Shown here piece by piece: positions 13,723-58,721 of a stretch of 64,000 nucleotides of DNA. Every line of letters starts with the position of its first letter. The first letter of the stretch is position 1. This DNA is from Eubacteriales bacterium (GTDB lineage: Bacteria > Bacillota > Clostridia > Oscillospirales > CAG-272): contig JAZOMF010000079.1 of assembly GCA_045653805.1 (NCBI GenBank), positions 5,327 to 69,326 on the forward strand, read 5' to 3'. The notes under the pieces were generated by a model. That model was not told the origin of the DNA, searched no databases, and saw nothing but the letters and a program-made list of their open reading frames with translations. The translations under genes were made by a program, and so were the position numbers.

Positions 13723-15732
13723 ATGAAAGCCCTAATTTTGAACTCCGGACTTGGTCGCAGAATGGGAGTGCTTACAAGCGAGCACCCGAAGTGCATGACC
13801 GAGATCTCGGCAAAGGATACTATACTTTCCCGTCAGCTTCGCCTGATCGCAGAGGCGGGAATAAGTGAAGTGGTTATGACCACGGGATATTTTGACGAGG
13901 TGCTGGTAAATTACTGCCACTCGCTGAATCTTCCCCTGCATTACACCTTTGTAAACAATCCCGTTTACGACACAACTAACTACATTTATTCGATATACTG
14001 CGCTCGTGACACTCTTGAGGGCGACGACATCGTGCTTATGCACGGTGATCTGGTGTTTGAGGGCGAGGTTTTCGATAAGGTCATCGCCAGTGAAGTGAGC
14101 TGTATGACCGTCAGCTCGACCCTGCCTCTGCCCGAAAAGGATTTCAAGGCGGTAATAGGCGAGGGAAGAGTGAAGGCTGTTGGCATCGAGTTCTTTACCG
14201 ATGCGCTGGCGGCTCAACCCCTTTACAAGCTTTGCAAAAATGACTGGAAGGTCTGGCTCGACGAGATAGTTGCATTCTGCGAGAGAGATGACCGCAAGTG
14301 TTACGCTGAAAACGCCTTTAACAAGGTGTCGGACAAGTGCCTCATTTATCCCCTTGACGTTGAAAATGCCCTCTGCGGCGAGATCGACACTCCCGAGGAT
14401 CTGGCAGTTGTGGCATCTCGAATTGCCGAGCTTGAAAGCCGTACCGTTTATATGTGCTTTTCTACCGATATGATCCATTCGGGTCACATTTCCATCATCA
14501 AGAAGGCGCAGAAGCTGGGCAGATTGATCATCGGCGTGCTTTCGGACGAGGCGGTTGCCTCCTACAAGCGATTTCCTCTTATGCCTTATGCCGAAAGGAA
14601 ATCCTTGGTTGAAAATATCAACGGCGTGTCTGAGGTTATCGAGCAAAAGGAGCTTTCCTACGCCGCAAATATCCGCGTGCTGAAGCCCGACTTTGTGGTT
14701 CACGGCGATGATTGGCGCGAGGGCTTCCAGAAGCCTATCCGCGACGAGGTCGTTGAGCTTTTGGCAAGCTATGGCGGAAAGCTGGTTGAGTATCCCTATT
14801 CCAAGGCCGAAACATATCTTGAAATGGAAAAGCTCTCCCGAGCGCAGCTTTCTATGCCCGACATGCGCCGTGGCAGACTTAAAAAGCTTATCTCTATGAA
14901 GGGTCTCGTTACCGCCATGGAGGCTCATAGCGGTATCACAGGACTTATCGTTGAGCAGACCAAGGTGCTTAAAGAGGGCAAGACCTATCAGTTTGATGCT
15001 ATGTGGGTATCCAGCCTTTGCGACTCTACCGCCAAGGGCAAGCCTGACATCGAGCTTGTTGATATGACCTCTCGTTTCCGCACCATAGACGACATAATGG
15101 AGGTTACCACCAAGCCCATCATCTTCGACGGCGACACAGGCGGACTTACCGAGCATTTCGTTTATACCGTCAAGAGCCTTGAGCGAATGGGCGTTTCCAT
15201 GGTAATCATCGAGGACAAGACCGGACTTAAAAAGAACTCGCTCTTCGGCACCGAGGTCGAGCAGACCCAGGATAGCATTGAGAACTTCTGCGAGAAGATC
15301 AGGGCGGGTAAGAAGGCGCAGAAGACCAAGGAATTTATGATCTGTGCGCGTATTGAGTCGCTCATTCTTGAAAGAGGAATGGAGGACGCGCTGGAAAGAG
15401 CGTTTGCCTTCTCTGATGCAGGTGCTGATGCTATTATGATCCACAGCCGCAAGAAGGATCCTGCGGAGATATTTGAGTTTGTGGAGAAGTTCCGTCAAAA
15501 GAATAAGGCAACTCCCATTGTGGTAGTTCCTACCTCCTTTAATACCGTCACCGAGCAGGAGTTTAAGCAGATAGGCGTCAACGTGGTTATCTACGCAAAT
15601 CAGTTAACTCGTAGCGGTTTCCCCGCAATGCAAAAGACCGCCCTCACCATCCTTGAAAACCACCGTGCCAAGGAAGCGGATGATATGTGTATGTCCATCA
15701 AAGAGATAATTACACTTATTCCGGAGGAATAA
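13723..15732 (+). CDS. pepM: Three-domain fusion: LicC-like nucleotidyltransferase, HxGH cytidylyltransferase and phosphoenolpyruvate mutase (PepM)
   Basis: aa 1-235 carry the NTP-transferase motif LNSGLGRRMG. aa 240-370 form a cytidylyltransferase-like domain with MIHSGHI (HxGH). aa 375-669 are PepM with DGDTGG and the diagnostic EDK-x5-NS motif (IEDKTGLKKNS). Confidence 0.9.
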   Translation: MKALILNSGLGRRMGVLTSEHPKCMTEISAKDTILSRQLRLIAEAGISEVVMTTGYFDEVLVNYCHSLNLPLHYTFVNNPVYDTTNYIYSIYCARDTLEGDDIVLMHGDLVFEGEVFDKVIASEVSCMTVSSTLPLPEKDFKAVIGEGRVKAVGIEFFTDALAAQPLYKLCKNDWKVWLDEIVAFCERDDRKCYAENAFNKVSDKCLIYPLDVENALCGEIDTPEDLAVVASRIAELESRTVYMCFSTDMIHSGHISIIKKAQKLGRLIIGVLSDEAVASYKRFPLMPYAERKSLVENINGVSEVIEQKELSYAANIRVLKPDFVVHGDDWREGFQKPIRDEVVELLASYGGKLVEYPYSKAETYLEMEKLSRAQLSMPDMRRGRLKKLISMKGLVTAMEAHSGITGLIVEQTKVLKEGKTYQFDAMWVSSLCDSTAKGKPDIELVDMTSRFRTIDDIMEVTTKPIIFDGDTGGLTEHFVYTVKSLERMGVSMVIIEDKTGLKKNSLFGTEVEQTQDSIENFCEKIRAGKKAQKTKEFMICARIESLILERGMEDALERAFAFSDAGADAIMIHSRKKDPAEIFEFVEKFRQKNKATPIVVVPTSFNTVTEQEFKQIGVNVVIYANQLTRSGFPAMQKTALTILENHRAKEADDMCMSIKEIITLIPEE

Positions 15733-28315: not shown

Positions 28316-28326
28316 CACCGCAGTTC

Positions 28327-28492
28327 TATTCGCCTTTGGCGAGTGATATTGCTTCGCAGTGATATTCGTCTTGCGACGAGTGATATTTGCTACGCAAGTT
28401 TTGGCGGCGAATAGAATATCACTGTTCGGCAACGACGAACAATATCACTTTCCAAAAGGAAAATATCACTGTTGCGAAGCAACAATATCACT
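28327..28492. repeat. Array of a 9-mer: three AGTGATATT followed by four copies of its exact reverse complement AATATCACT, interleaved with short variable hairpins
   Basis: AGTGATATT occurs at 28342, 28358 and 28379. AATATCACT occurs at 28415, 28441, 28462 and 28484. A 9-bp outer pairing CTATTCGCC (28327) / GGCGAATAG (28406) is also present. The array is intergenic between the flavoprotein gene and cmk. Confidence 0.85.
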
Positions 28493-41743: not shown

Positions 41744-41806
41744 TAATCGATAATATCTGCGAGCGCTATCGACTTGCGGATAAATATTTGTAATGGATGG
41801 TGTATT

Positions 41807-44800
41807 ATGAGAAAGCGACCTACAAAATTGTTATCTTTATTGATGACTGTAGCTATGGCTCTGCCAATTTTTTGCATCGGTACTCTGCCTGCTTTAGCAG
41901 AGGAGAGAATAGTCGATGTTGACGAAGCTAATACGGCGATTGTTGAAAATGCCAACTCACTGGCAAACGGTGTTCAGGCTTATTTCAAAGATCCCAGCAG
42001 AAATTATTTCATTGTTGAAAACCAGCAAATGAAATTCGAGTATAACCTCAGAGACCTCGAAGAATCTAAGAAAATGCAGCTTGTATATCTCAAGGATAAG
42101 GCAGGCAACTCTTATATCGAGAATACCATGGATGCCTTTGTGGTTACGAAGGGCGGTGAAACGCTCTACGCTTCAAATTCTAACACCACAGCTTCTCCTA
42201 ACCTCCATAGATTTGGTTATTACTACTACGATGCCAGAATGGAGGGTCAGAACTTTATCAGTGAAGAGATTAATAACGGTAATGTTAAAAAAACGACAGC
42301 TCTGAAATTTGCTGTTAAAGAAGCAAAGGAAATTACTTACAATAATTCTTATTACGGTAAGGTTTCGGGTACGATAGACAACACTGATGACCCCTATTTG
42401 CGCTTCCAAGCGAACTCTTCGTGGAATACGTATAAAGCCGATGATTATCAGTTTATTAGAATAACCATGTCCTCCGATGCTGCTATCACAGGCGGAAGCT
42501 TTTACTTTAGCGATACCGAAACCGACTTTGACGAGGGTAGAAGAGTTAATTTCTCCATAAGTGGTAATGGTGTTAGCGGCGATCAGATGGTGTATTACGT
42601 TCCCATGTATACCAATGCAAATTATAAGGGAACAATCCTCGGTCTCCGTCTTGACTTTAACGCAATCGAAAAGGGAGCAGAGTTTAAAATCACCAATCTT
42701 GAGGTTGTTCAGGTTAAAGACACAAGTAGCTACCCCTACGGTCTCTACGTTAACCGTGACTTCCTTGTTTACTCCGATAAGATGCACAGCTTTACTCAGT
42801 TCACCGCAACTCAGGAGTTGAATAACGTTGCTAAGGTTGGTGTTGAGGTCAAGATCCCCAAGACAGACGTTTTAGGATATGTTGTTAAGGCAGACGACAC
42901 TCTTTATTATGACTCTCTCCCAGTAAGCGATTTGAGTAGCGCAGAGTACGTAGGCTTTATCATTGAGGGCGCAGGTGTGTTCGGTTATATTATGCCCGCA
43001 GATAATTCGGGTGGAAAGCTTACCGTTACCGATGACGGAGAGAATTACGTTATCTCTCAAACCCTTCCCCTTGATAACAATACTATAAGTCCTTCCGAAG
43101 CCGGAACGAAGAACGGAAACGATATTTTCATGGGTCAGCGACTCTATACCGACGATAATTTCGACCTTGCAACCTTTATAACAGAAGCAGAAAACGAGAG
43201 AAATCCCATTCCTAAGGAAAACTTCATCGTTAGCGATGATTCTAACGGTACTTATGCAGGCTACGATGCAATTCGTGGTTGCTACAAATTTAATATCAAT
43301 AGCTTCACCGGATTTGGTACTCCTTATTACTCTGCACAGAATAAGCAGTTCAAGATCAACTACACCATAATCGGTGAAGAGAATCAGGATAGAAATATCT
43401 GGGTCATGACCTACGGAACCGGCGGTTGTCTTGAATGTGCGGCAATCCTTGATGAAAATGAAATGATGATCCCCGTACCCCTCCAGGTTGGTAAAAACTT
43501 CAGTGAAGCCAACGGTGAGAGAAACAAGTTCAATTTTGACGACCCCACATACAGCGAAGTTATCTATCCTATGGATATAAAGAAGGGATCTGAAAACGAG
43601 TACACTATTCTTAATATGTACCAGAACTGGGGTCAGTTCCCCATCAAGCAGCTCTCTTGGATCCAGTTTGACGCTCCTTACTATCACATCTCCACAGGTG
43701 TAAGTGAGTCTAACTGTATAACGCCTCTTTACAATATGGGTCAGGTCGCCACAAATAGCACACTCCCCGACTTCAGAGGAATGTCATCCCCCTTGTGGAG
43801 CAAAGATCCCCAGCATAATAGCTGCGGTAATCACAGATGGTTGATCTATACCGATGAAAGCGGAAAGAAATTTGCAACCGAAAGCACCGCAAATATCATT
43901 AACTCCTACGGTCCTAACTATGCCTCGGTAGATATGCACTATATTACCGACGACGGCAAGATCAAGGCAACCTACACTCACATGGAGATGCCTCAGACCG
44001 ACGAGAACAGAACCTATTATGAAATGAAGTTTGAGGTTCTTAAGGACGTTACCTTCACCGATTTCAAGAATCAGCTTCAGTTCTATTCAGTAAGATCTAA
44101 TGACCCCACAGGTTACTATACTCGCCTCGGCTACCTTAACGACAAAAACGAAAGCACGGTAGTTGATGCAAAGATAGAGGAAAGCGGTACGGCGCAGTAC
44201 GTTCTTGGAGACAAGTGCCCTTACTTCTCCTATTTCGATATGGATAACGCTACCTCCCAGCATAACGAGCCTAAAGCAGCCGGTTACTCCAACGTAGCAT
44301 TCCTCGTTTACAACTCCGAAATCAGCATTACCGGAGTGGATGAAACTCCTAACTTTATTATCACTGACCGCGGAGGTGAGATAGCTGTCTCCCTTGACCT
44401 TGACGGAGTTACCTTGATGGCGGGCGATAAGATCACCATTAACGCTATCCTCCTTCCTTGGGGAAGCCAGGAAATGGAAGGTAGCTACGATACCATTCAG
44501 GATCAGAACGTTCGTGACGTAAGAAAGAACACTCTTCTTGATCCTATTACCGCAAAACCCACAGCAGACCCCACCGTAACTAATGCTACTATAACTACCG
44601 AAAAGGTAGCGTCCGCATTCCTCCCCAGAGTTAAGACCACTAACGGCAAGGAAGCAGTATTTACCCTTTCGGGCGGCGAAAATAACCAGACCGTAAGAGT
44701 TGACGGTTTCAAAAAGCTTACCGACCCCAAGATCTACGAGCTTGTGAACGGTGCTTGGGTTGAATACAACGTATGCTCCGCCCTTACTCCCGACGGAAAC

Positions 44801-46219
44801 GGCGACGGATACAGCTACGACGGCTACGGCGTCTACTTCGATAGCGATAGCGAGACCCCCACCTACAGCTATACCTTCGTTGTGGATATGACCGGAAACG
44901 TGGAAAGAACCTTTAAGGTAGTTGCATCCGAGGACTTCGACGGCTGGGATATCACCCTTGCCGACTTCCAGATCAACCAGGGAATGAACTTTATCGCAAG
45001 CGGTGAAAAGCTTTATGAGGCTTCTTTGAAATATAAGGATAACTTCGGCGGCATTGAGTCTAAAAACGAGAATGGTATTGATTACGTAAGATATACCAGT
45101 AATTCCTCTGGTGAGTCCTCTGTCTATCTTTTCAGTAGTGAAGGCTCTACCATAATTACCGGTAACTACATAGTAATGAAGTACCGAACCTATAATAAGC
45201 AAGCGGGTGAGCGTATTGAATTTCATACAAAAACCACCAGCACAGTTCCAAACAACACCTACTACTCCTTTATCGATCATAAAACAGATGGTGAGTGGCA
45301 TGTTGTAGTTTTGGACATTAAACAGATGAAACCTGCTGACGAGAGCATTGTACCCGATGAAAACGACGGTACTCTTAGATCAAAGTTCCTTCGTGTTGAT
45401 ATCTTCAACTACGTGAAGAAAGTTCAGACTTTCGACGTGGCTTACATAGGAATGTGCGATAGCATCAGCGAGGTATTCTCATATGATCCCAGCCTCACCG
45501 ACACCAAGATCACACACATTACATCCACCCCAAAAGGAGCAGATGGAGTATACTACGATGATGGAAGAGATGTAACTAAGAGTGATCTTGAAAGCGTTAA
45601 TATATCGGTGAAAAAAGATACTGTAGCAGATATTAACGGTTCCTTTAGTGTACCGGTTCTCATCGAAAATAACACCGACACCGGATTCTCTTACCTTGAC
45701 ATAATGCCTACATATGATAAGGATAAGTTTGTTTTCACGGGTTATACAATTGGCGACGTTGCCGACGAAGTGGAAATAATCGGAAACAGATTGATCTTTA
45801 AGAATACATCCGATATCATAAAAGATGGAACGCTTATAAATCTCAACTTCAAGCACAAGAGTGTCATGGAAATTGGTTCAACTGCTGAGTTCTCGGTTAA
45901 GGTTGTCGATGCAAATAATATCCAGGGCTATGGTGTCAATACTGTGATCGAATCCGGAGAAGTCACCTTTGTAATACCTGACAGAGGTAACGTTGACGGC
46001 GATCCTGACAACAAAATAACCCTTGCTGATGTTATGTTGTTGAGAAAATATCTCACGGATAAGGATAGCGTGTATATCGATGTAAATAATGCCGACGTAG
46101 ATCTCGACGGAGATGTTGATGTCATCGACCTTATTCATATCCGTAAGTATATTGCGAATTATAATTTTGATGATAATAAGCCCGAATATGATTTTCCCGG
46201 ATATAACGTTGATGAATAA
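41807..46219 (+). CDS. Large secreted multidomain protein: signal peptide, about 1250 aa of unknown function, a cohesin-like module and a C-terminal type I dockerin
   Basis: It has a signal peptide (MRKRPTKLLSLLMTVAMALPIFCIGTLPALAEE). A cohesin-like segment (FSVPVLIENNTDTGFSYLDIMPTYDKDKFVFTGY...) follows, then duplicated dockerin Ca-binding loops (GNVDGDPDNKITLADVMLLRKYL ... DVDLDGDVDVIDLIHIRKYI). Confidence 0.8.
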   Translation: MRKRPTKLLSLLMTVAMALPIFCIGTLPALAEERIVDVDEANTAIVENANSLANGVQAYFKDPSRNYFIVENQQMKFEYNLRDLEESKKMQLVYLKDKAGNSYIENTMDAFVVTKGGETLYASNSNTTASPNLHRFGYYYYDARMEGQNFISEEINNGNVKKTTALKFAVKEAKEITYNNSYYGKVSGTIDNTDDPYLRFQANSSWNTYKADDYQFIRITMSSDAAITGGSFYFSDTETDFDEGRRVNFSISGNGVSGDQMVYYVPMYTNANYKGTILGLRLDFNAIEKGAEFKITNLEVVQVKDTSSYPYGLYVNRDFLVYSDKMHSFTQFTATQELNNVAKVGVEVKIPKTDVLGYVVKADDTLYYDSLPVSDLSSAEYVGFIIEGAGVFGYIMPADNSGGKLTVTDDGENYVISQTLPLDNNTISPSEAGTKNGNDIFMGQRLYTDDNFDLATFITEAENERNPIPKENFIVSDDSNGTYAGYDAIRGCYKFNINSFTGFGTPYYSAQNKQFKINYTIIGEENQDRNIWVMTYGTGGCLECAAILDENEMMIPVPLQVGKNFSEANGERNKFNFDDPTYSEVIYPMDIKKGSENEYTILNMYQNWGQFPIKQLSWIQFDAPYYHISTGVSESNCITPLYNMGQVATNSTLPDFRGMSSPLWSKDPQHNSCGNHRWLIYTDESGKKFATESTANIINSYGPNYASVDMHYITDDGKIKATYTHMEMPQTDENRTYYEMKFEVLKDVTFTDFKNQLQFYSVRSNDPTGYYTRLGYLNDKNESTVVDAKIEESGTAQYVLGDKCPYFSYFDMDNATSQHNEPKAAGYSNVAFLVYNSEISITGVDETPNFIITDRGGEIAVSLDLDGVTLMAGDKITINAILLPWGSQEMEGSYDTIQDQNVRDVRKNTLLDPITAKPTADPTVTNATITTEKVASAFLPRVKTTNGKEAVFTLSGGENNQTVRVDGFKKLTDPKIYELVNGAWVEYNVCSALTPDGNGDGYSYDGYGVYFDSDSETPTYSYTFVVDMTGNVERTFKVVASEDFDGWDITLADFQINQGMNFIASGEKLYEASLKYKDNFGGIESKNENGIDYVRYTSNSSGESSVYLFSSEGSTIITGNYIVMKYRTYNKQAGERIEFHTKTTSTVPNNTYYSFIDHKTDGEWHVVVLDIKQMKPADESIVPDENDGTLRSKFLRVDIFNYVKKVQTFDVAYIGMCDSISEVFSYDPSLTDTKITHITSTPKGADGVYYDDGRDVTKSDLESVNISVKKDTVADINGSFSVPVLIENNTDTGFSYLDIMPTYDKDKFVFTGYTIGDVADEVEIIGNRLIFKNTSDIIKDGTLINLNFKHKSVMEIGSTAEFSVKVVDANNIQGYGVNTVIESGEVTFVIPDRGNVDGDPDNKITLADVMLLRKYLTDKDSVYIDVNNADVDLDGDVDVIDLIHIRKYIANYNFDDNKPEYDFPGYNVDE

Positions 46220-50617: not shown

Positions 50618-50734
50618 ATAGTATACCATGATTTTATGCGTTTGTCAATAGGGGAGTGAAGGAAATTTTGAAATTCAAGCAAAAAATTAAAAATTCAAGC
50701 AAAAAAAGAGAGGCATAAAGCCTCTCTTTTGCTA

Positions 50735-50816
50735 TGGTCGAAGTGGCGGGACTCAGAACCTTTACACAAAATTGCAAGCAATTTTGGTGGTAGATTCAAA
50801 TGGCACCGTACGATCC
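50735..50816 (-). repeat. Unit 1 of a tandem 82-nt element whose 3' end imitates the 3' end of tRNA-Pro, flanked by a terminator hairpin
   Basis: Read on the minus strand it ends ...AGGTTCTGAGTCCCGCCACTTCGACCA, against GGGTTCGAATCCCGTCACACCGACCA in tRNA-Pro. It is nearly identical to unit 2 except in the loop of its internal 7-bp stem. Confidence 0.75.
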
Positions 50817-50858
50817 AAGAATAACAAAAAGAGAGGTGTAAAAACCTCTCTTTTTGCT

Positions 50859-50940
50859 TGGTCGGAGTGACGGGATTCAGAACCTTTACACAAAATTGCG
50901 GGCAATTTTGGTGGTAGATTCAAATGGCACCGTACGATCC
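50859..50940 (-). repeat. Unit 2 of the tandem element resembling the tRNA-Pro 3' end
   Basis: The minus strand reads GGATCGTACGGTGCCATTTGAATCTACCACCAAAATTGCCCGCAATTTTGTGTAAAGGTTCTGAATCCCGTCACTCCGACCA. It lies 124 nt from unit 1 and 122 nt from the true tRNA. Confidence 0.75.
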
Positions 50941-50980
50941 AGGCATAAAAAAGCAGAGGCATCAAGCCTCTGCTTTTTTA

Positions 50981-51057
50981 TGGTCGGTGTGACGGGATTC
51001 GAACCCACGACCTCTTGGTCCCGAACCAAGCGCACTACCAAACTGTGCCACACCCCG
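50981..51057 (-). tRNA. tRNA-Pro (anticodon CGG), CCA encoded
   Basis: The minus strand reads CGGGGTGTGGCACAGTTTGGTAGTGCGCTTGGTTCGGGACCAAGAGGTCGTGGGTTCGAATCCCGTCACACCGACCA. The anticodon arm is CTTGG-TTCGGGA-CCAAG. By eye there is one G-A mismatch in the acceptor stem. Confidence 0.8.
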
Positions 51058-51197: not shown

Positions 51198-51218
51198 CCC
51201 AAACTGTGCCACACCCCG
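51198..51218 (-). repeat. Duplicated 5' fragment of tRNA-Pro, about 140 nt upstream of the intact gene
   Basis: AAACTGTGCCACACCCCGA occurs at both 51040-51058 and 51199-51218 on the plus strand. This corresponds to tRNA positions 1-19. Confidence 0.75.
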
Positions 51219-51441
51219 AAAACAGTATTAACGCGAACAACAGTTAGTATAACACATCGCAAAACTTTTGTCAAGGGGGTGGAGAGGGAAAAAAGCAAAT
51301 AATGAGGCTTTTTTATTGGGTTTATTCTGAAAACTGACCGAAAAGGTCAGCCGTTCACAAAATTTTGGTAATTAAACGCCTCATATTAAATATATATAAT
51401 AATAATTTAAAAAAATTTAAAAAATATATATTAAAAATAGG

Positions 51442-51470
51442 TTGTAAAAAGCACAAAAATGTAGTATAAT
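51442..51470 (+). promoter_or_regulatory. Sigma-A type promoter for the A-T-R / plsAR operon
   Basis: TTGTAA (51442-51447), a 17-nt spacer, then TATAAT (51465-51470), within a very AT-rich region. Confidence 0.55.
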
Positions 51471-51523
51471 GTATGATGGTTTTATATGTCCGCGCGAATT
51501 TGCACTTGAATGGAGTTTAAATT

Positions 51524-54475
51524 GTGAAAAAAGTTCTTCGTGATCTTCAGGAATATATGAGCGAAATTGCCAAGGCGTACGGCAAAAAAGATGCCTATCG
51601 CTACTTTGTCAATGACCGTGTAGTATCCAAGACATTTATCGAATTTGAAAGAGACGTTAATGCTGTCGCTTCTTATTTCGTTAAAAATAGATGGCACGGT
51701 AAGCACATCGCTATAATTGGATCAACAAGCTACCCTTGGGTGGTGACCTTTTTGGCGGTTGAGTGCAGTGGTAACGTGGTTATCCCTATCGACAAAATGC
51801 TTCCTGAAGTTGACATGATCAATCTCTTGGCAATGGGTGATGCAGACGTTGTGTTTCTTGCTGATGAGTTCGCGTCTATGGCAACTCCTATAAGCGCGGC
51901 AGAGAATAATGTTCAGGAAATCATCTGCTTCACCGGAAAAAAATATGAAGAATGCCTTGCTACAGAGCCTGTTGATCTGCCCAAGATCGATCCCGATGCT
52001 ATGGCAGAGATACTTTTCACTTCGGGCACGACCGGCGTGAGCAAGGGTGTTATGCTTACACAAAGAAACATTGTTTCCAATATTTGCGACATATATAGAA
52101 TGGACTTCAGACAGAATCTTGATTGTGATGCTATCGTTATGTCGGTTCTTCCCATTCACCATACCTTTGAGTTGACGGTGGACAACCTTGGCGTGCTTTA
52201 TTGCGGTGCGACCGTATGCATTAACGATAAGCTCGAGAATATCGTTGCAAACCTTAACCTTTTCAAGCCATCCGTAATTTTGGTAGTTCCCGCAATAGCA
52301 GAGGCTTTCTACAAAAAGGTTATGGACGGACTTTCCAGCGGAAGCAATAAGAGAAAGATTGCCTTTGCCCGCAAGTTAAGCAAGATATGCAAGTTCTTTA
52401 AGATCAACGCCAAGCGCAAGATATATAAGTCGGTTCTCAAGAAGTTTGGCGGCAATCTTACTAACGTTATCGTCGGCGGCGCAGCACTTCGCCCCGAGAT
52501 AGCCGAGGCATTCGACGAGTTTGGTGTAAATATGTATCAGGGCTACGGACTTACCGAGTGCGCCCCCCTTATTTCTGCAAACTATCCGGGGTGCAATAAA
52601 TTCGGTTCTGTGGGTAAGCCCGTAGAGTATATGGACGTGAAGATCGTTGACGGCGAGATCATGGTAAAGGGCTCAGGCGTGATGTTGGGATACTACAAGA
52701 ATCCCAAGGCAACTGCAGAGGCTTTCACCGAGGACGGATATCTCCACACAGGAGACCTGGGCTGGCAGGACGAGGATGGCTACCTCTACATAACAGGCCG
52801 CTCCAAGAACCTTATAATTCTCGACAACGGAAAAAATATATACCCCGAGGAGCTTGAGTCTCACATCGGAAATATCGTAGGCATCAAGGACGTAATGGTT
52901 TACGAGAACAAGGGTAAGATCTGTGCCGCAGTTCTCCCCGTCAACGCCAATGACGAAAATCTTATCAAGCAGATAAAGCAGGGAATAAAGGATTTTAATG
53001 CCGAACAGCCATCCTATAAGAGAATAGTTTCTATTGTCTTTATTTCCAAGGAGTTCCCCAAGACCACTACCTTAAAGATAAAGCGTAAGGAAGCGGTTAA
53101 GATGATAAAGGAGCAGGTGGTTAAAAAGACCGTGGCTCACGTTCCTCCCACCACTCGCGAGCAGAAAAAGATAGTTACAGCCTACGAAAACGTGCTCGGA
53201 TGCAAGAACATCGGCATCAAGGATGATTTCTTCGACCTTGGAGGCGATAGCCTTGCAGCACTTGAGGTGGCATCAATCATCGGCGTTCCTGCGCAGGAGC
53301 TTTACGAGAATCCCACCGCAGAGCTGCTTGAAAAGGTGCTTATCGAGGCAAAGGTCAAGGCAAAGACAGAGAGAAGCGGCGTTGACGTAAACGAGCTTAT
53401 CAAACACAAGGCTAATATAGATAGCAATCAGGAGGTCGAGCGCATACTGTTGACGGGTGCGACGGGATACCTCGGTGCCCACATTCTCCGTGAGCTTATG
53501 CGCCGTGGAATCAAGGTTCGTTGCCTTGTGCGAAGTGAAGAAAAGCTTCGACAGGTGCTTGAATATTATTTCCCCAAGGAATATAAAAAGTTCAATTATA
53601 AAGTGGTAATCGGTGACATAACCCAGCCCAAACTCGGTCTTACCGATGAAAAATACCACAGTCTTGCGAAAAAGATTGATATGGTTATCCACACTGCGGC
53701 AAACGTAAGCCATGCGGGTCACTACGAGGAGTTTGAGCTGACCAACGTCATAGGTACACAAAATGTTATTGATTTTTGTAGTTTTGCAGGCGCGGTGCTT
53801 CAGCATACCTCAACCGCCAGTGTTCACGGTGCGGGAACGGTTGCGCAGAAGAATCCCGACGCGATTTTTGACGAGTTCTGCCTCGACGTAGGTCAAAATT
53901 ACGTTCAGAACGTTTATATTCACTCAAAGTATAAAGCAGAGGAGAGAGTTCTCCTTGCAAGAGAAGAGGGACTTCGTGCAAACATTTTTCGAATCGGTAA
54001 CCTCACTTGGCGCGCAAAGGACGGAAAGTTCCAGAAAAATGCAGGATCCAACGGGTTCCTTGGTCGTTGTCGCGGAATTTTGCAGGTAGGCGTTTATTGT
54101 AGCGAGATCGACGAATACCCCATCGACTTTACAGCAGTAGACGAGTGTGCAGACGCCTTTGTTCGTCTTTCCCTCAACCACAAGGTTAATAACATTTATC
54201 ATATGTACAACCCTGACCTTTTCTCAATCGGAAGGTTTGGTAAAAAGTGCTTTGTGAAGTTAAAGAAGGTATCCCACGAGGAATTTGAAAAGAAGGTAAG
54301 AGATAATATCAGCGAAAAGGATGTTGCAATTCTTTCCTTCTACAGTACCATAGCATCTGAATCTGCCAACGTGCCTATGAGCAACGATTTTACCGTTAAG
54401 GAGCTTAAAAAGCTCGGGTTTAAGTGGTCTAAGATCAAGCTCAAATACCTCAGCTTCATGAGAAAGCTCAAATAA
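51524..54475 (+). CDS. Tridomain fatty acyl-AMP/CoA ligase, carrier protein and thioester reductase (carboxylic-acid-reductase-like, ElbD-like N-terminal architecture); GTG start
   Basis: It has adenylation motifs ILFTSGTTGVSKGV, QGYGLTE, TGDLGWQDEDGYLYITGRSKN and GKNIYPEELE. The carrier motif is FFDLGGDSLAALE. The reductase has LLTGATGYLGAHILREL and YIHSKYKAE (YxxxK). Confidence 0.85.
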   Translation: MKKVLRDLQEYMSEIAKAYGKKDAYRYFVNDRVVSKTFIEFERDVNAVASYFVKNRWHGKHIAIIGSTSYPWVVTFLAVECSGNVVIPIDKMLPEVDMINLLAMGDADVVFLADEFASMATPISAAENNVQEIICFTGKKYEECLATEPVDLPKIDPDAMAEILFTSGTTGVSKGVMLTQRNIVSNICDIYRMDFRQNLDCDAIVMSVLPIHHTFELTVDNLGVLYCGATVCINDKLENIVANLNLFKPSVILVVPAIAEAFYKKVMDGLSSGSNKRKIAFARKLSKICKFFKINAKRKIYKSVLKKFGGNLTNVIVGGAALRPEIAEAFDEFGVNMYQGYGLTECAPLISANYPGCNKFGSVGKPVEYMDVKIVDGEIMVKGSGVMLGYYKNPKATAEAFTEDGYLHTGDLGWQDEDGYLYITGRSKNLIILDNGKNIYPEELESHIGNIVGIKDVMVYENKGKICAAVLPVNANDENLIKQIKQGIKDFNAEQPSYKRIVSIVFISKEFPKTTTLKIKRKEAVKMIKEQVVKKTVAHVPPTTREQKKIVTAYENVLGCKNIGIKDDFFDLGGDSLAALEVASIIGVPAQELYENPTAELLEKVLIEAKVKAKTERSGVDVNELIKHKANIDSNQEVERILLTGATGYLGAHILRELMRRGIKVRCLVRSEEKLRQVLEYYFPKEYKKFNYKVVIGDITQPKLGLTDEKYHSLAKKIDMVIHTAANVSHAGHYEEFELTNVIGTQNVIDFCSFAGAVLQHTSTASVHGAGTVAQKNPDAIFDEFCLDVGQNYVQNVYIHSKYKAEERVLLAREEGLRANIFRIGNLTWRAKDGKFQKNAGSNGFLGRCRGILQVGVYCSEIDEYPIDFTAVDECADAFVRLSLNHKVNNIYHMYNPDLFSIGRFGKKCFVKLKKVSHEEFEKKVRDNISEKDVAILSFYSTIASESANVPMSNDFTVKELKKLGFKWSKIKLKYLSFMRKLK

Positions 54476-54489
54476 GAGAAAGGAATACT

Positions 54490-57414
54490 ATGAGAATAGG
54501 TATTGATATAGGATCAACCACAATCAAATGTGTTGTGCTTGACGATAACGGCAATCTTCTCCATAAGAGCTATGAGCGTCACTACGCCATGATCACCGAG
54601 AAGACCCGTGAAGTCATCAAAGGATTAATCGAAAAATTTAATATAACCGAGCCTGTAGTCTGTGCGGTTTCGGGCTCTGCGGGTATGGGACTTGCCGAGC
54701 GTGCAGGCGTACCATTCGTGCAGGAGGTTTATGCTACCAAGGTTGCTATCAGCAACCGTCTGCCCGATACCGACGTAGTTATTGAGCTTGGCGGCGAGGA
54801 TGCAAAGATACTCTTCCTTAAAGGAAATCTTGAGGTTAGAATGAACGGTACCTGTGCCGGCGGTACGGGTGCGTTTGCCGACCAGATGGCAAGCCTTATG
54901 CAGATCGAAACGGGCGAGATGAACGAGCTGGCAAAGAGCTACGAGAAGATATACTCCATCGCATCGCGTTGCGGAGTTTTCGCAAAGACTGACATCCAGC
55001 CCCTCTTGAATCAGGGCGCGAGAAAAGAGGACATCTCGGCAAGTATCTTCTACGCGATCGTTAACCAGACCATCACAGGTCTTGCACAGGGTCACCCCAT
55101 CGAGGGCAATATAGTGTATCTCGGCGGTCCCTTGACCTTCCTCTCCGAGCTTCGTCGTGCATTTGATAAGACTATCGGATGCGAGGGCACTTGCCCCGAG
55201 GATTCTCTTGTGTTCGTTGCTCTCGGAGCGGCTTACTACGCCGAGGAGAAGGTAGACCTTCAAAAGGCTTACGAAATAATCGGTGAGAAGGCGGATTTCA
55301 CCGCCGACACCTCTCTCCGTCCTCTCTTTACCGACAGAGCTGAGTACGATGAGTTTATGGAGCGCCACAACGCTCACAGAGTGCCCCGAAACGAGGGAGT
55401 TGAGTATTCGGGCGATGCCTACCTCGGTATCGACTCGGGTTCTACCACCTTGAAGCTGGTTTTGACCGATAAGGACGGCTCTATCATCTTCTCTAAGTAT
55501 CAGTCTAATCAGGGTAAGCCCATCGAGGTCGTAAGAGATACCCTTATTGAAATGTATGAGAAGTATCCTAACGTCAAGATCGTTTCCTCTGCGGTAACGG
55601 GTTACGGCGAGGATATGATGAGAAGTGCGCTTGGTATCGATATCGGCGTGGTTGAGACGGTGGCTCACTTTACCGCGGCTAAGTATTTTATGCCTGACGT
55701 TGAGTTTATCATCGACATCGGCGGTCAGGATATGAAGTGCTTTAAGATTCGAAACGGCGCTATTGATAATATATTCCTCAACGAGGCTTGCTCCTCGGGT
55801 TGCGGCTCCTTCCTCCAGACCTTTGCCAACTCCTTGGGTTACCCCATCGACGAGTTTGCAAATCTCGGTCTTTTTGGAAACAATCCCGTTGACCTGGGAT
55901 CGAGATGCACCGTATTTATGAACTCATCGGTAAAGCAGGCGCAGAAGGAAGGCGTTACCGTTGAGAATATCTCTGCTGGACTTTCCATCAGCGTAGTTAA
56001 GAACGCGCTTTATAAGGTTATAAGAGTTCACTCGGCAGAGGAGCTTGGAAAGAGAATAGTTGTTCAAGGCGGTACCTTCCTCAATAACGCGGTTCTTCGT
56101 GCATTTGAGCAGGAGATCGGAGTAGAGGTCATTCGTCCCGACATCGCAGGAATGATGGGTGCTTATGGTGCGGCACTTTACGCCAAGCAGATGAAAAAGC
56201 ATAAGGGTTATTCGGGAATTCTCTCCTACGAGGATATGAAGAGCTTTACATATTCCATCAAGAGCGTGACCTGTAAGGGCTGTAACAACCGCTGTCAGCT
56301 TACCGTCAACGATTTCGGCGGCGGACGCAGATTTATCGGTGGCAACCGTTGTGAAAAGCCGGTTACCAACAAGGCGCAGGACGATTCTCTCAATCTCTAC
56401 GAATATAAGCTCCAAAAGCTTGCTTCTTACCCCGAGGGAGAGGGAAGTCGCGGAGTTATCGGTCTTCCTATGGCACTTAATATGTATGAGCTGTATCCTT
56501 TCTGGAATACGCTCTTCCGCGAGCTTGGATTTACCGTTAAAATGAGCGGATTTTCCAACCGTAAGCTCTATCTTAAGGGTCAGGGAACTATCCCATCGGA
56601 TACCGTATGCTTCCCCGCAAAGATGGTGCACGGACATATCCAGCAGCTGATAGAGATGGGTGTTGATACTATCTTCTACCCCTGTATGACCTACAATTTC
56701 AATGAAAAGAAGGCCAAAAACTGCTTTAACTGTGCGGTTATCGCAGGATATCCCGAGGTTATCGAGGCAAATACCCTCAACTTCGGTAAGATAAAGTACG
56801 TAAACGATTACGTAGGCCCTCACAACAGAGGAGAGTTTGCTTCGCGCTTTACAAAGGTGCTTGAAAAGCATTTCGGCTCGTTCAAGGCAAGCGACGTGAA
56901 GAAGGCTTGTAAGAAGGCTTACGAGGCGTATGACGAATATATGGCAGACGTAAACCGCGAGGGCTTGCGCATCGTCGAGGCGGCAAGAGCAGAGGATAAG
57001 AAGATAATCGTTCTTGCAGGTCGCCCCTACCACGCCGACCCCGAGATAAACCACGGAATACATAAGCTCATCGCCGCACTCGGCTTTGCCGTTGTGTCGG
57101 AGGATGCGGTCGCTTGTATGGTTGATAAGTTCAACGTCAACCTTATGAGCCAGTGGACGTATCACCAAAGACTTTTCTCTGCGGCAAAGTACGTGTCGGA
57201 GCAGAACGACATGTTCATCGTTCACTTGGTTTCCTTCGGATGCGGTCTCGACGCGCTTACTACCGACGAGGTGAGAAGTCTGCTTGAGCACTACGGACAT
57301 CTTTACACCCAGATCAAGATCGACGAGGTAACTAACCTGGGTGCTATCAAAATAAGACTGAGAAGCCTTATCGCGGCAATAGAACAGAAGAACAAGGAGA
57401 AGGGTAATGAATAA
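54490..57414 (+). CDS. plsA: PlsA-like protein: two BcrAD/BadFG-type ATPase (activase) domains plus a C-terminal HgdA/B-related Cys-containing domain; predicted anaerobic plasmalogen synthase component
   Basis: There are two acetate/sugar-kinase-fold ATPase starts (RIGIDIGSTTIKCVVLD and YLGIDSGSTTLKLVLTD). A CKGCNNRCQLT motif and a dehydratase-component-like tail follow. This matches the architecture reported for Clostridium perfringens PlsA. Confidence 0.65.
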   Translation: MRIGIDIGSTTIKCVVLDDNGNLLHKSYERHYAMITEKTREVIKGLIEKFNITEPVVCAVSGSAGMGLAERAGVPFVQEVYATKVAISNRLPDTDVVIELGGEDAKILFLKGNLEVRMNGTCAGGTGAFADQMASLMQIETGEMNELAKSYEKIYSIASRCGVFAKTDIQPLLNQGARKEDISASIFYAIVNQTITGLAQGHPIEGNIVYLGGPLTFLSELRRAFDKTIGCEGTCPEDSLVFVALGAAYYAEEKVDLQKAYEIIGEKADFTADTSLRPLFTDRAEYDEFMERHNAHRVPRNEGVEYSGDAYLGIDSGSTTLKLVLTDKDGSIIFSKYQSNQGKPIEVVRDTLIEMYEKYPNVKIVSSAVTGYGEDMMRSALGIDIGVVETVAHFTAAKYFMPDVEFIIDIGGQDMKCFKIRNGAIDNIFLNEACSSGCGSFLQTFANSLGYPIDEFANLGLFGNNPVDLGSRCTVFMNSSVKQAQKEGVTVENISAGLSISVVKNALYKVIRVHSAEELGKRIVVQGGTFLNNAVLRAFEQEIGVEVIRPDIAGMMGAYGAALYAKQMKKHKGYSGILSYEDMKSFTYSIKSVTCKGCNNRCQLTVNDFGGGRRFIGGNRCEKPVTNKAQDDSLNLYEYKLQKLASYPEGEGSRGVIGLPMALNMYELYPFWNTLFRELGFTVKMSGFSNRKLYLKGQGTIPSDTVCFPAKMVHGHIQQLIEMGVDTIFYPCMTYNFNEKKAKNCFNCAVIAGYPEVIEANTLNFGKIKYVNDYVGPHNRGEFASRFTKVLEKHFGSFKASDVKKACKKAYEAYDEYMADVNREGLRIVEAARAEDKKIIVLAGRPYHADPEINHGIHKLIAALGFAVVSEDAVACMVDKFNVNLMSQWTYHQRLFSAAKYVSEQNDMFIVHLVSFGCGLDALTTDEVRSLLEHYGHLYTQIKIDEVTNLGAIKIRLRSLIAAIEQKNKEKGNE

Positions 57415-58681
57415 GACGACGCATTACAGAGAAAGAGTTAAATTTACCCTTAAAATGAAGAAGGATTACACCATCCTCACTCCCAGCATGGCGCCTATCC
57501 ACTTCAAGATATTGCGCCCCATTCTTCAACGCGAGGGTTATAAGATCGACATTATGGAGAACGAGGGCCCCGAGGTTCTGGAGCTTGCCCTCAAATATCT
57601 CCACAACGATATGTGCTATCCTGCAATGCTTACCACGGGTCAGATGCTTGCAACCATGAAGAGCGGCAAATACGACCCCGATAAGGTTGCAATGATCATC
57701 ACCCAGTCGGGTGGCGGTTGCCGAGATAGTAACTATATCAACATTATGCGTAAGGCTTTCGAAAAGGCGGGCTACCCCAACGTACCCTTCATTTCGGCTA
57801 ACGTATGGCTTATGGAGCTTAATCCCGGCGTATTTATGAGCCCCGCAGGCTTCCTTCAGGCGGTCGCAGGACTTATCTACGGAGATATGATAATGATATG
57901 CTCCAATCAGATCCGCCCCTACGAGGTCAATAAGGGCGAAACCGACGCTATGATCGAAAAGTGGACCACCAAGCTTGGCGAGACCTTCTATAAGGGTCGC
58001 GGATACAGCGTTGGCGCAATTAAGAAGAATCTTAAAGCAATTGCCGACGATTTTGCTTCTATTAAGATAGAAAAGACCGATAAGGTCAAGGTTGCAGTTA
58101 TCGGAGAGCTTTTCCTTAAATATTCCGCGCCAGGTAACAACCACCTTGAAGAATTCCTCGCAGAGCAGGATTGCGAGGTCTACGTGCCCTCCATTCTCGG
58201 CTTTGGTATCTACAAGACCAACGGCGCGCTTGAGGACATCCGCCTTTACGGTGGCAACCCCTTCAAGAAGCTGATACTTGAAGTGGTTATGAAGTATATG
58301 TTCTGGATGGAGGATATACTCATTTCGGCAATCGAGGCTAACCCCGCATTCGTTCCCCCCGAGAGAGTCAACGACCTCAAAAAGAGAGCCGAGGGCGTTA
58401 TCGGAATCGGAAACAGTATGGGCGAGGGCTGGTATCTTGCGGCAGAAATGCTGGAGTTTGCCGACCACGGATATGAAAATATCGTTATCGTTCAGCCCTT
58501 CGGATGCCTGCCCTGCCACGTTGCGGCAAAGGGAATGATCAATAAGGTAAGACGAGTTGACCCCAGACTCAACATCGTCGATATCGAGTACGACCCCGGC
58601 GCAACCAAGGTAAATCAGGAAAACCGTATCAAGCTTATGCTTGTAGTCGCAAAGGAAAATTTGCAGAAGAAAAACAAGTAA
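57407..58681 (+). CDS. plsR: PlsR-like protein (2-hydroxyacyl-CoA dehydratase D-component-like); predicted anaerobic plasmalogen synthase component
   Basis: It is a 424-aa HGD-D-like protein (CYPAMLTTGQ, ITQSGGGCRDSNY, QPFGCLPCHV). It overlaps plsA by 8 nt, which suggests translational coupling. Confidence 0.65.
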   Translation: MNKTTHYRERVKFTLKMKKDYTILTPSMAPIHFKILRPILQREGYKIDIMENEGPEVLELALKYLHNDMCYPAMLTTGQMLATMKSGKYDPDKVAMIITQSGGGCRDSNYINIMRKAFEKAGYPNVPFISANVWLMELNPGVFMSPAGFLQAVAGLIYGDMIMICSNQIRPYEVNKGETDAMIEKWTTKLGETFYKGRGYSVGAIKKNLKAIADDFASIKIEKTDKVKVAVIGELFLKYSAPGNNHLEEFLAEQDCEVYVPSILGFGIYKTNGALEDIRLYGGNPFKKLILEVVMKYMFWMEDILISAIEANPAFVPPERVNDLKKRAEGVIGIGNSMGEGWYLAAEMLEFADHGYENIVIVQPFGCLPCHVAAKGMINKVRRVDPRLNIVDIEYDPGATKVNQENRIKLMLVVAKENLQKKNK

Positions 58682-58688
58682 AAATAAA

Positions 58689-58721
58689 GGACAGAGAATT
58701 AGTTTTCTCTGTCCTTTTTTG
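58689..58721. terminator. Rho-independent terminator between plsR and the convergent metH
   Basis: GGACAGAGAA TTAGTT TTCTCTGTCC followed by TTTTTT. Confidence 0.85.

Follow-up and report, generated by a model that had tools for sequence, protein, structure and literature searches.

A predicted carrier-dependent reductase gene forms a conserved operon with a distinct PlsA/PlsR-type gene pair in gut and rumen Clostridia

The locus described here lies in a 64-kb stretch of DNA from an Eubacteriales bacterium (GenBank assembly GCA_045653805.1, contig JAZOMF010000079.1), called the window throughout, and all coordinates are window positions unless another locus is named. Three ORFs on the + strand make up the locus. 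Gene 1 (51524-54475; 983 aa, GTG start, TAA stop) encodes an adenylation-carrier-reductase (A-T-R) enzyme that is a putative carrier-dependent fatty-acid reductase, gene 2 (54490-57414; 974 aa, ATG start) encodes a PlsA-like protein, and gene 3 (57407-58681; 424 aa, ATG start) encodes a PlsR-like subunit. The genes for plasmalogen synthesis in anaerobes were not identified until 2021, and the view since then has been that PlsA/PlsR (PlsAR) is all that the pathway needs. Our comparison across genomes showed that the A-T-R reductase and a distinct PlsAR variant form a conserved three-gene operon of gut and rumen Clostridia, for which no prior description was found. Among the papers listed by full-text literature searches, none dealt with plsA, plasmalogens or plasmalogen synthase together with a thioester reductase, a carboxylic acid reductase, an AMP-binding enzyme or an enzyme like the nonribosomal peptide synthetases (NRPS), in agreement with the statement in an earlier, sequence-only reading of this DNA that such a reductase had not been described with plsAR.

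The three genes were closely coupled. Genes 1 and 2 were separated by 14 nt containing the ribosome-binding site GAGAAAGGAA, and genes 2 and 3 overlapped by 8 nt, ATGAATAA, so that the gene 3 ATG lay within the last codons of gene 2; both the gap and the overlap had been given correctly by the sequence-only reading. The same reading had described a co-directional trio with a single promoter and a single terminator, and candidates for both were located. A sigma-70-type promoter-like site (51442-51470, + strand) had the form TTGTAA-17-TATAAT, with 10 of 12 consensus matches. A bidirectional intrinsic terminator (58686-58717), with a 13-bp stem, 5 G-C pairs and T-runs on both strands, served both the end of the operon and a convergent metH-like gene downstream. 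Terminator-like matches on the + strand within the operon were limited to two weak 6-bp hairpins (51729-51744 and 57204-57223), and the operon region held fewer such matches than shuffled sequence. Just 3' of the -10 element was a conserved block of the 5' untranslated region (5'UTR), GATGGTTTTATATGCC (ca. 51473-51492, + strand). The promoter, with its -35/-10 spacing, and this block were kept 5' of gene 1 in loci L003-L010, L015, L016 and L019, which belong to the window's subclade. The block may act as an operator or belong to a leader element; Rfam gave no family match at its position, and a search for regulator boxes 5' of gene 1 yielded only the promoter and this conserved block.

In the order of its domains, gene 1 follows the plan of a carboxylic acid reductase. 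Its adenylation domain (51569-53119, + strand; aa 16-532) matched the Pfam families AMP-binding (202 bits) and AMP-binding_C_3, its carrier domain (53168-53323, + strand; aa 549-600) matched PP-binding at 25.3 bits (cut-off 20.8) with Ser575 in a GGDSL motif, and its terminal thioester reductase domain (53444-54358, + strand; aa 641-945) matched NAD_binding_4 (PF07993) at 143 bits (cut-off 20.1). The sequence-only reading had called a ligase, a GGDSL carrier and a terminal thioester reductase, and the three were found in that order. Against the NCBIfam thioester-reductase model TIGR01746, the protein scored 177.9 bits, under the cut-off of 213.35. Among solved structures, the N-terminal part of the adenylation domain resembled carboxylic acid reductases (5msc, E 5e-33), its C-terminal part resembled luciferase and 4-coumarate ligase, and the carrier-reductase part resembled NRPS and AusA reductase domains. 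When 27 gene 1 orthologues were aligned, all adenylation-domain core motifs, the GGDSL serine, TGATGxLG and YxxSK were invariant, and the reductase was the best-conserved domain, with 35% invariant columns.

Two observations point to a fatty acid as the probable substrate of gene 1. The adenylation domain carried an ACSL-type signature and scored best with long-chain ligase models, and it was 33% identical (E 4e-93) to a stand-alone adenylation protein, encoded in a gene cluster at locus L097, of the type used in the gut fatty-acid-amide pathway. The adenylation protein of that pathway activates fatty acids (PMC13310621). The product released by gene 1-type reductases is suggested by the relatives P0215 and P0233 (43-45% identical to gene 1), in which an iron alcohol dehydrogenase is joined to the C-terminus; read as a Rosetta stone, such a fusion hints at an aldehyde as the compound that the reductase releases. 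P0215 adjoined GH3, free-standing condensation, adenylation and acyl carrier protein (ACP) genes, an arrangement that is also the architecture of the gut fatty-acid-amide pathway. The cluster at L097 8001-17295 (also seen in L098) was headed by a 1376-aa A-T-R plus iron alcohol dehydrogenase protein, 43% identical to gene 1, followed by co-directional GH3, condensation, adenylation and ACP genes, and it resembles a variant form of the fatty-acid-amide pathway of the gut that has gained a reductase taking acid to alcohol. A scan of 1.84 billion cluster representatives returned one orthologous cluster at 60% identity, followed by approximately 30 full-length A-T-R clusters of 950-1040 residues at 33-44%. 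Few of these distant members bore an organism name, all of them uncultured Clostridia, and most were nameless; two of the distant relatives that were examined stood alone. The gene 1 family of 950-1040-residue proteins is uncharacterised.

Genes 2 and 3 had the PlsA/PlsR architecture that the sequence-only reading had assigned to them, with two activator domains and a first reductive domain in one protein (Act1-Act2-Red1) and a second reductive domain (Red2) in the next. Together they span 4,192 bp, nearly equal to the 4,199 bp of the plsA-plsR fragment of Clostridium perfringens (PMC12838417). The reading had given gene 2 two BcrAD/BadFG ATPase domains and a dehydratase-like domain, all of which were recovered: two Pfam BcrAD_BadFG stretches corresponding to activator ATPase domains (ca. 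aa 1-255 and 312-565) and DUF2229 (PF09989, Red1) at aa 657-874 with 248 bits. Gene 2 also scored 249 bits against TIGR00241, and an internal repeat between the ATPase domains was visible in tblastn, aligning to aa 1-255. Residues 312-570 matched 4eht and 1hux, the activators of 2-hydroxyisocaproyl-CoA and 2-hydroxyglutaryl-CoA dehydratase. A cysteine-rich linker contained C595, C598, C602 and C621. The curated NCBIfam and Pfam collections held no model for PlsA, and a look-up of the window's gene 2 found no entry on record.

Gene 3 alone gave only a weak HGD-D match (E 6e-4, below cut-off), and among 35 members of its family, weak DUF2229 matches occurred in 30 and weak HGD-D matches in 7. 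Searches of Protein Data Bank (PDB) sequences with the single sequence and with a profile found no relative of gene 3. Its AlphaFold2 model (pLDDT 75, pTM 0.80) matched best to 3o3m_B, which is HadC, the beta subunit of 2-hydroxyisocaproyl-CoA dehydratase (E 1.4e-5, probability 1.0, TM 0.47-0.53), followed by class I benzoyl-CoA reductase catalytic subunits (BzdNO/MbdON) and a double-cubane cluster protein. On the strength of the model, gene 3 is assigned the 2-hydroxyacyl-CoA-dehydratase/benzoyl-CoA-reductase fold, and the dehydratase-like call made from the sequence was borne out by this fold match and the weak HGD-D match.

Linkage of gene 1 to plsAR was surveyed by a scan with gene 2 over one genome per species (GTDB representatives), in which the best 80 loci were kept and each was searched with all three proteins. 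In all 23 loci whose gene 2 homologue was 71-93% identical, a full-length gene 1 orthologue (55-73%) lay directly upstream and a gene 3 orthologue (66-94%) directly downstream. By contrast with this group, gene 1 was found in none of the 57 loci whose gene 2 homologue was 58-63% identical, 43 of which had at least 3 kb of upstream sequence; in these 57, a gene 3 homologue (43-54%) was present or the sequence ended too early. The co-occurrence proposed by the sequence-only reading was therefore seen in 23 of 23 loci at 71% or above, but it was not general, being confined to one monophyletic PlsA/PlsR subclade. The cassette was also present at L001 and L002, which were reached through gene 1 homologues, and the three-gene arrangement was present in 26 loci other than the window, from other records, with differing flanks.

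A neighbour-joining tree of the gene 2 homologues placed the linked proteins in one clade with a long stem. Identity was 70-100% between linked proteins, 56-64% between linked and unlinked proteins, and 58-98% between unlinked proteins. When flanking ORFs were clustered over the linked loci, genes 1-3 alone were common to all; synteny in the flanks occurred only within close subclades and involved housekeeping genes. Across 26 linked loci, pairwise distances were correlated (r = 0.91 for genes 1 and 2, 0.86 for genes 1 and 3, and 0.94 for genes 2 and 3), and gene 1 was the fastest evolving of the three. Genes 1 and 2 were usually separated by 6-24 nt, whereas an overlap joined genes 2 and 3. 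Carriers were labelled Eubacteriales, Acutalibacteraceae, Oscillospiraceae, Ruminococcus, Clostridium and Lachnospiraceae and came from human gut, chicken and ruminant samples, with one cultured isolate, Lachnospiraceae bacterium G41.

The unlinked homologues of Anaeromassilibacillus, Caproiciproducens and Caproicibacter, taxa that GTDB places in Acutalibacteraceae, were 59-62% identical to gene 2, and the linked homologues labelled Lachnospiraceae were 71-75% identical. The cassette therefore appears to have evolved along a line of its own, either as a paralogue or through transfer as a unit, rather than as the vertically inherited PlsA of one family; this is an inference, as the labels of metagenome-assembled genomes (MAGs) on which it draws are coarse. 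No phosphopantetheinyl transferase, acyltransferase or regulator was conserved across the linked loci. A functional link with the neighbours in the Lachnospiraceae subclade (Mfd, AsnA and LspA) was considered and rejected, as these are housekeeping genes. Among other neighbours of the cassette, an acyl-ACP thioesterase was near it in L002 and L094-L096, and the occurrence of the thioesterase and of a lipid-kinase gene nearby was restricted to one sub-branch. In one sub-branch of linked loci (L001 18276-21013, and also L008, L015 and L019), the cassette was followed on the opposite strand by an Fe-ADH_2 gene (glycerol-1-phosphate-dehydrogenase-like), a GDPD phosphodiesterase and a HAD-phosphatase.

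The catalytic framework of the linked proteins was compared with that of 57 unlinked homologues. The linked clade retained every cysteine and histidine that reached at least 95% conservation among the unlinked PlsA/PlsR proteins. In gene 2 the retained cysteines were C122, C161, C417, C434, C438, C473, C595, C598, C602, C621, C707, C748 and C918. In gene 3, C70, C105, C256, C367 and H371 were at least 95% conserved in both linked and unlinked proteins and strictly invariant in the 35-sequence alignment. The conserved cysteines of both proteins are presumably [4Fe-4S] cluster ligands. Linked and unlinked proteins were discriminated by 40 alignment columns (22 + 18). In gene 2, the clade substitutions P749A, V751I and Y753G adjoined C748; in gene 3, A107D lay by C105, K337S, L343Y and T345A lay around MGEGW, and I372V lay by H371. 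The position of these substitutions beside conserved motifs hints at a changed active-site environment, and the pattern as a whole would suit an ordinary PlsAR as well as one whose active site has been retuned.

Gene 1 was also found outside the cassette. A metagenome scan with gene 1 returned four loci, among them the first unlinked orthologue, on metagenome contig L083, which was 60% identical and had transporter genes downstream. No plsAR was present in the 6 kb downstream of it, and the upstream sequence was only 560 bp long. A search seeded with the L083 protein recovered its subfamily at 66-96% identity and five more gene 1 contexts without plsAR (L087/88, L089/90, L091, L092 and L093), making six in all. 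At L089/90, the orthologue stood amid LpxK and TonB-receptor genes in a Bacteroidota-like context, which suggests transfer of the L089 gene into Bacteroidota. Several observations were made on this stand-alone clade (L083, L087-L093). Its members were 60-67% identical to linked orthologues, some of its clusters held more than 100 member sequences, and several copies adjoined a HisKA_7TM/GerE or TPR/GerE regulator. An unannotated pair beside gene 1, a lipoprotein-like protein of ca. 455 aa and a small membrane protein of ca. 100 aa, occurred at L087 6120-7893 and L091 11554-13224; the pairs were 52-53% identical, and at one of these loci the pair lay upstream of gene 1, at the other downstream of it.

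In the outgroup-rooted tree of gene 1, the six stand-alone contexts formed one derived clade inside the linked family, and all basal branches were linked. P0194, which the tree placed among the linked branches, is borne by 14 contigs, and the full cassette was present in all three that were then examined (L094-L096). Because every basal branch of the rooted tree was linked, the phylogeny indicates that linkage of gene 1 with plsAR is ancestral for the orthologue family and was lost once. The converse arrangement, the linked PlsAR type without gene 1, was not seen in the gene 2 scan (23 of 23 linked). Gene 1 can persist alone, and the linked PlsAR was never seen to do so; this asymmetry suggests a dependence of the PlsAR variant on the reductase rather than the other way round.

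These observations are the basis for our preferred interpretation, which we hold tentatively and at slightly less than even confidence: the three genes would constitute an ether-lipid module that is complete in itself and inherited as one, and its PlsAR variant would need the reductase. Gene 1 would adenylate a free carboxylic acid with ATP, most likely a medium- or long-chain fatty acid, load it as a thioester on its own phosphopantetheine arm, and release it through the terminal reductase with NAD(P)H, most likely as an aldehyde. In the products of genes 2 and 3, two ATP-driven activator domains would feed low-potential electrons to two iron-sulfur catalytic domains. In characterised relatives, a glycerolipid's sn-1 ester is converted to a vinyl ether (PlsAR) or, in the case of the glycerol ester reductase Ger, to an alkyl ether (PMC9702350, PMC13159169). 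Coupling in its likeliest form would have gene 1 supply an aldehyde-level chain from free fatty acid, which the PlsAR variant would put into an sn-1 (vinyl) ether; in a weaker form, the two enzymes would work on parallel, co-regulated routes to ether lipids. The three-gene operon may thus be a second, aldehyde-fed route to ether lipids.

A possible path for the stronger coupling would run from aldehyde and lyso-lipid hydroxyl to a hemiacetal, followed by dehydration. The linked PlsAR would then be an aldehyde-dependent vinyl-ether synthase and not an ester reductase, dehydrating a hemiacetal at the sn-1 hydroxyl of a lyso-glycerolipid to an alk-1'-enyl ether, a specific proposal that we regard as doubtful. 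We know of no precedent for the radical dehydration of a hemiacetal. The aldehyde route fits the observation that anaerobes use long-chain aldehydes, and not alcohols, for plasmalogens (Goldfine & Hagen 1972, cited in PMC9702350).

Apart from the missing chemical precedent, several points weigh against a reductase-dependent module. Gene 1 reached the cut-off of no curated model for long-chain ligases or carboxylic acid reductases, and a long chain in its substrate is a prediction. Gene 1 also thrives unlinked, in one case in Bacteroidota-like surroundings, and its product must therefore be of use without this PlsAR. Identity between linked and unlinked PlsA is little below the spread among unlinked proteins, and ordinary PlsAR activity is possible; most of the clade-specific substitutions were also conservative. 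The carriers may also have a standard plsAR. No second plsAR was present in the 64-kb window, and no assembly appeared twice among the best 80 gene 2 loci, a count that is uninformative on this point; in one study of screened genomes, several PlsA homologues were common in Bacillota (PMC13274423). Lastly, PlsAR alone was sufficient for plasmalogens in E. coli (Jackson 2021 as cited in PMC12838417; PMC9702350), and the standard enzyme therefore needs no aldehyde donor.

In the main rival explanation, genes 2 and 3 would be an ordinary PlsAR that reduces the sn-1 ester of diacyl lipids in the standard way, and gene 1 would be a co-regulated accessory gene. Gene 1 would then act in membrane homeostasis, for instance by converting fatty acids, whether free or exogenous, to aldehydes or alcohols, either to detoxify them or to provide for other lipids. 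The gut and rumen are rich in free fatty acids, and record titles placed the carriers in gut and rumen samples. The retained Cys/His framework, the mostly conservative clade changes, the sufficiency of PlsAR in E. coli, and the occurrence of gene 1 orthologues and distant relatives as stand-alone genes in many contexts are all in keeping with an accessory role. An accessory role does not readily account for the linked PlsAR type never occurring without gene 1, for the tight co-evolution of the three genes as a unit across different families, or for the clustering of substitutions by conserved Cys motifs, and a 14-nt coupling over such divergence is rarely kept by co-regulation alone. We consider this explanation credible but on the unlikely side.

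A further explanation keeps the functional link and changes the product. The PlsAR-like pair could have gone back to working on thioesters, as dehydratases and benzoyl-CoA reductases typically do, and would then modify the acyl chain bound to the gene 1 carrier, or an acid that is not a lipid, ahead of the reductive release step. A soluble aldehyde or alcohol metabolite would result, and not an ether lipid. CoA thioesters are the normal substrates of the fold family, and a carrier domain has the same pantetheine arm as they do; gene 1 fell under the cut-off of every curated fatty-acid ligase model, and a distant gene 1 relative sits in a secondary-metabolite-like cluster. Against this, genes 2 and 3 were 58-63% and 43-54% identical to plsA-plsR-type pairs and kept the full architecture, no tailoring or export genes were conserved nearby, and no fusion of gene 1 with gene 2 occurred among the best 150 cluster representatives or the best 120 matches. 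There is in our judgement only a small chance that this explanation is correct. Fortuitous adjacency of functionally unrelated genes, for which the existence of stand-alone gene 1 orthologues might be cited, has next to no probability and is effectively refuted by the comparative sequence data, as the arrangement recurred in the 26 other loci and L094-L096 amid unrelated flanks, gene order and coupling were constant, distances were correlated, and loci split perfectly by PlsA subclade.

Whichever coupling applies, the operon ties a distinct PlsAR lineage to a predicted aldehyde-forming fatty-acid reductase and so touches on unexplained plasmalogen biochemistry. If the hemiacetal route were true, it would be a second anaerobic route to plasmalogens and would give a genetic basis to the 1972 observation that aldehydes are used and alcohols are not. 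The cassette and the stand-alone relatives of its reductase recur in many gut and rumen metagenome assemblies, the cassette in 23 of the best 80 species-representative loci, and ether lipids of gut bacteria have been reported to affect the host (PMC10076029). Three cloneable genes and a cultured carrier, Lachnospiraceae bacterium G41, provide a concrete test system. The gene 1 reductase family is in addition a candidate source of carboxylic acid reductases that work in anaerobes.

Other features of the window were noted apart from the operon. Upstream of it, a tRNA-Pro(CGG) gene (50981-51057, minus strand) was accompanied by two degenerate copies of its 3' part, ca. 112 nt each and each with its own terminator-like hairpin (50717-50828 and 50841-50952), and by a 24-nt copy of its 5' end at 51199-51222, ca. 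300 nt before gene 1. These partial copies may have been left behind by repeated integration events at the tRNA gene, or they may be tRNA copies that have decayed. A 1481-aa ORF with a TTG start (41774-46219) had no Pfam match and was followed by 231-aa and 488-aa ORFs that were also unmatched. A match to the Gut-1 RNA family (RF01706) was present at 28321-28391 on the + strand (57 bits against a gathering score of 50). Window positions 1-24234 held a long run of + strand genes with G+C shifts of 0.37-0.50, including a 669-aa protein (13723-15732) named phosphoenolpyruvate phosphomutase by JGI; this run may be a phosphonate or surface-glycan locus.

Among known systems, gene 1 has the same domain order as the carboxylic acid reductases (CARs) of Nocardia, Mycobacterium and Segniliparus (NF041592) and the NRPS-like A-T-R reductases. 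CARs and gene 1 share the phosphopantetheine serine and a Rossmann/Tyr-Lys reductase, and the phosphopantetheine arm is needed in both. The alcohol-dehydrogenase fusions of relatives suggest two-electron release of an aldehyde as a further likeness. Gene 1 differs in being about 190 residues shorter (983 residues against 1160 model positions in NF041592) and in its adenylation domain of ACSL/fatty-acid-ligase type. It scored 183.7 bits against the NF041592 equivalog cut-off of 1300, and on that score it was rejected as a CAR orthologue.

The sequence-only reading had likened the ligase-carrier-reductase arrangement to the first three domains of ElbD, from the elb ether-lipid cluster of Myxococcus xanthus. 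That comparison was wrong on order, because ElbD has an N-terminal FAR-like reductase followed by ACS, ACP and a C-terminal AGPAT domain (PMC9131029; bioRxiv 10.64898/2026.06.23.733905). Both proteins have a ligase, a carrier and a reductase (FAR-type in ElbD), and ElbD is implicated in ether-lipid synthesis with an aldehyde as its proposed product. The reductase of gene 1, however, is C-terminal, and gene 1 is without an acyltransferase domain. ElbD acts in an aerobic pathway with ElbB/ElbE and CarF, whereas gene 1 has no elb neighbours; a scan of nine flanking window ORFs for an elbB-elbE-type cluster gave no phosphohydrolase or epimerase/dehydratase match. On domain order, gene 1 was rejected as ElbD-like. 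The NRPS-like fatty-acid-amide pathway of Coprococcus eutactus (OaaA/OaaACP/OaaC) has an adenylation protein of the type seen in the gene 1 adenylation domain, a likeness drawn through L097. That pathway makes amides with a free-standing condensation domain, whereas gene 1 is without a condensation domain and would release its product by the terminal reductase.

Genes 2 and 3 resemble two characterised systems. Ger (glycerol ester reductase, a "modified PlsA") of Thermotoga maritima and Desulfatibacillum alkenivorans belongs to the PlsA family, its two activator domains preceding the reductive ones. Its activity is confined to anaerobic conditions, and it forms sn-1 ethers from esters with a saturated alkyl product; this PlsA homologue is a maker of alkyl ethers (PMC13159169). 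Ger consists of one polypeptide in which small D/H domains are repeated (BBDHDDH), whereas here the protein is split into BBD and a separate D/H-like subunit. PlsA and Ger are not yet separable by sequence (PMC13274423), and genes 2 and 3 may yield either a vinyl ether, as PlsA does, or an alkyl ether, as Ger does. In layout and total size, genes 2 and 3 are like the PlsA/PlsR synthase, which is encoded by CPE1194/1195 in C. perfringens and occurs in single-ORF forms in Enterococcus, Lactococcus and Bifidobacterium. The plsA-plsR-type pairs of cultured Clostridia, such as Clostridium merdae and Ruthenibacterium lactatiformans, were 58-63% (gene 2) and 43-54% (gene 3) identical. The conserved cysteines are shared with unlinked two-gene plsA-plsR homologues, and kinship was judged through such proxies. 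The PlsA/PlsR systems described to date are two-gene operons or single genes, whereas the subclade of genes 2 and 3 was always preceded by an A-T-R gene.

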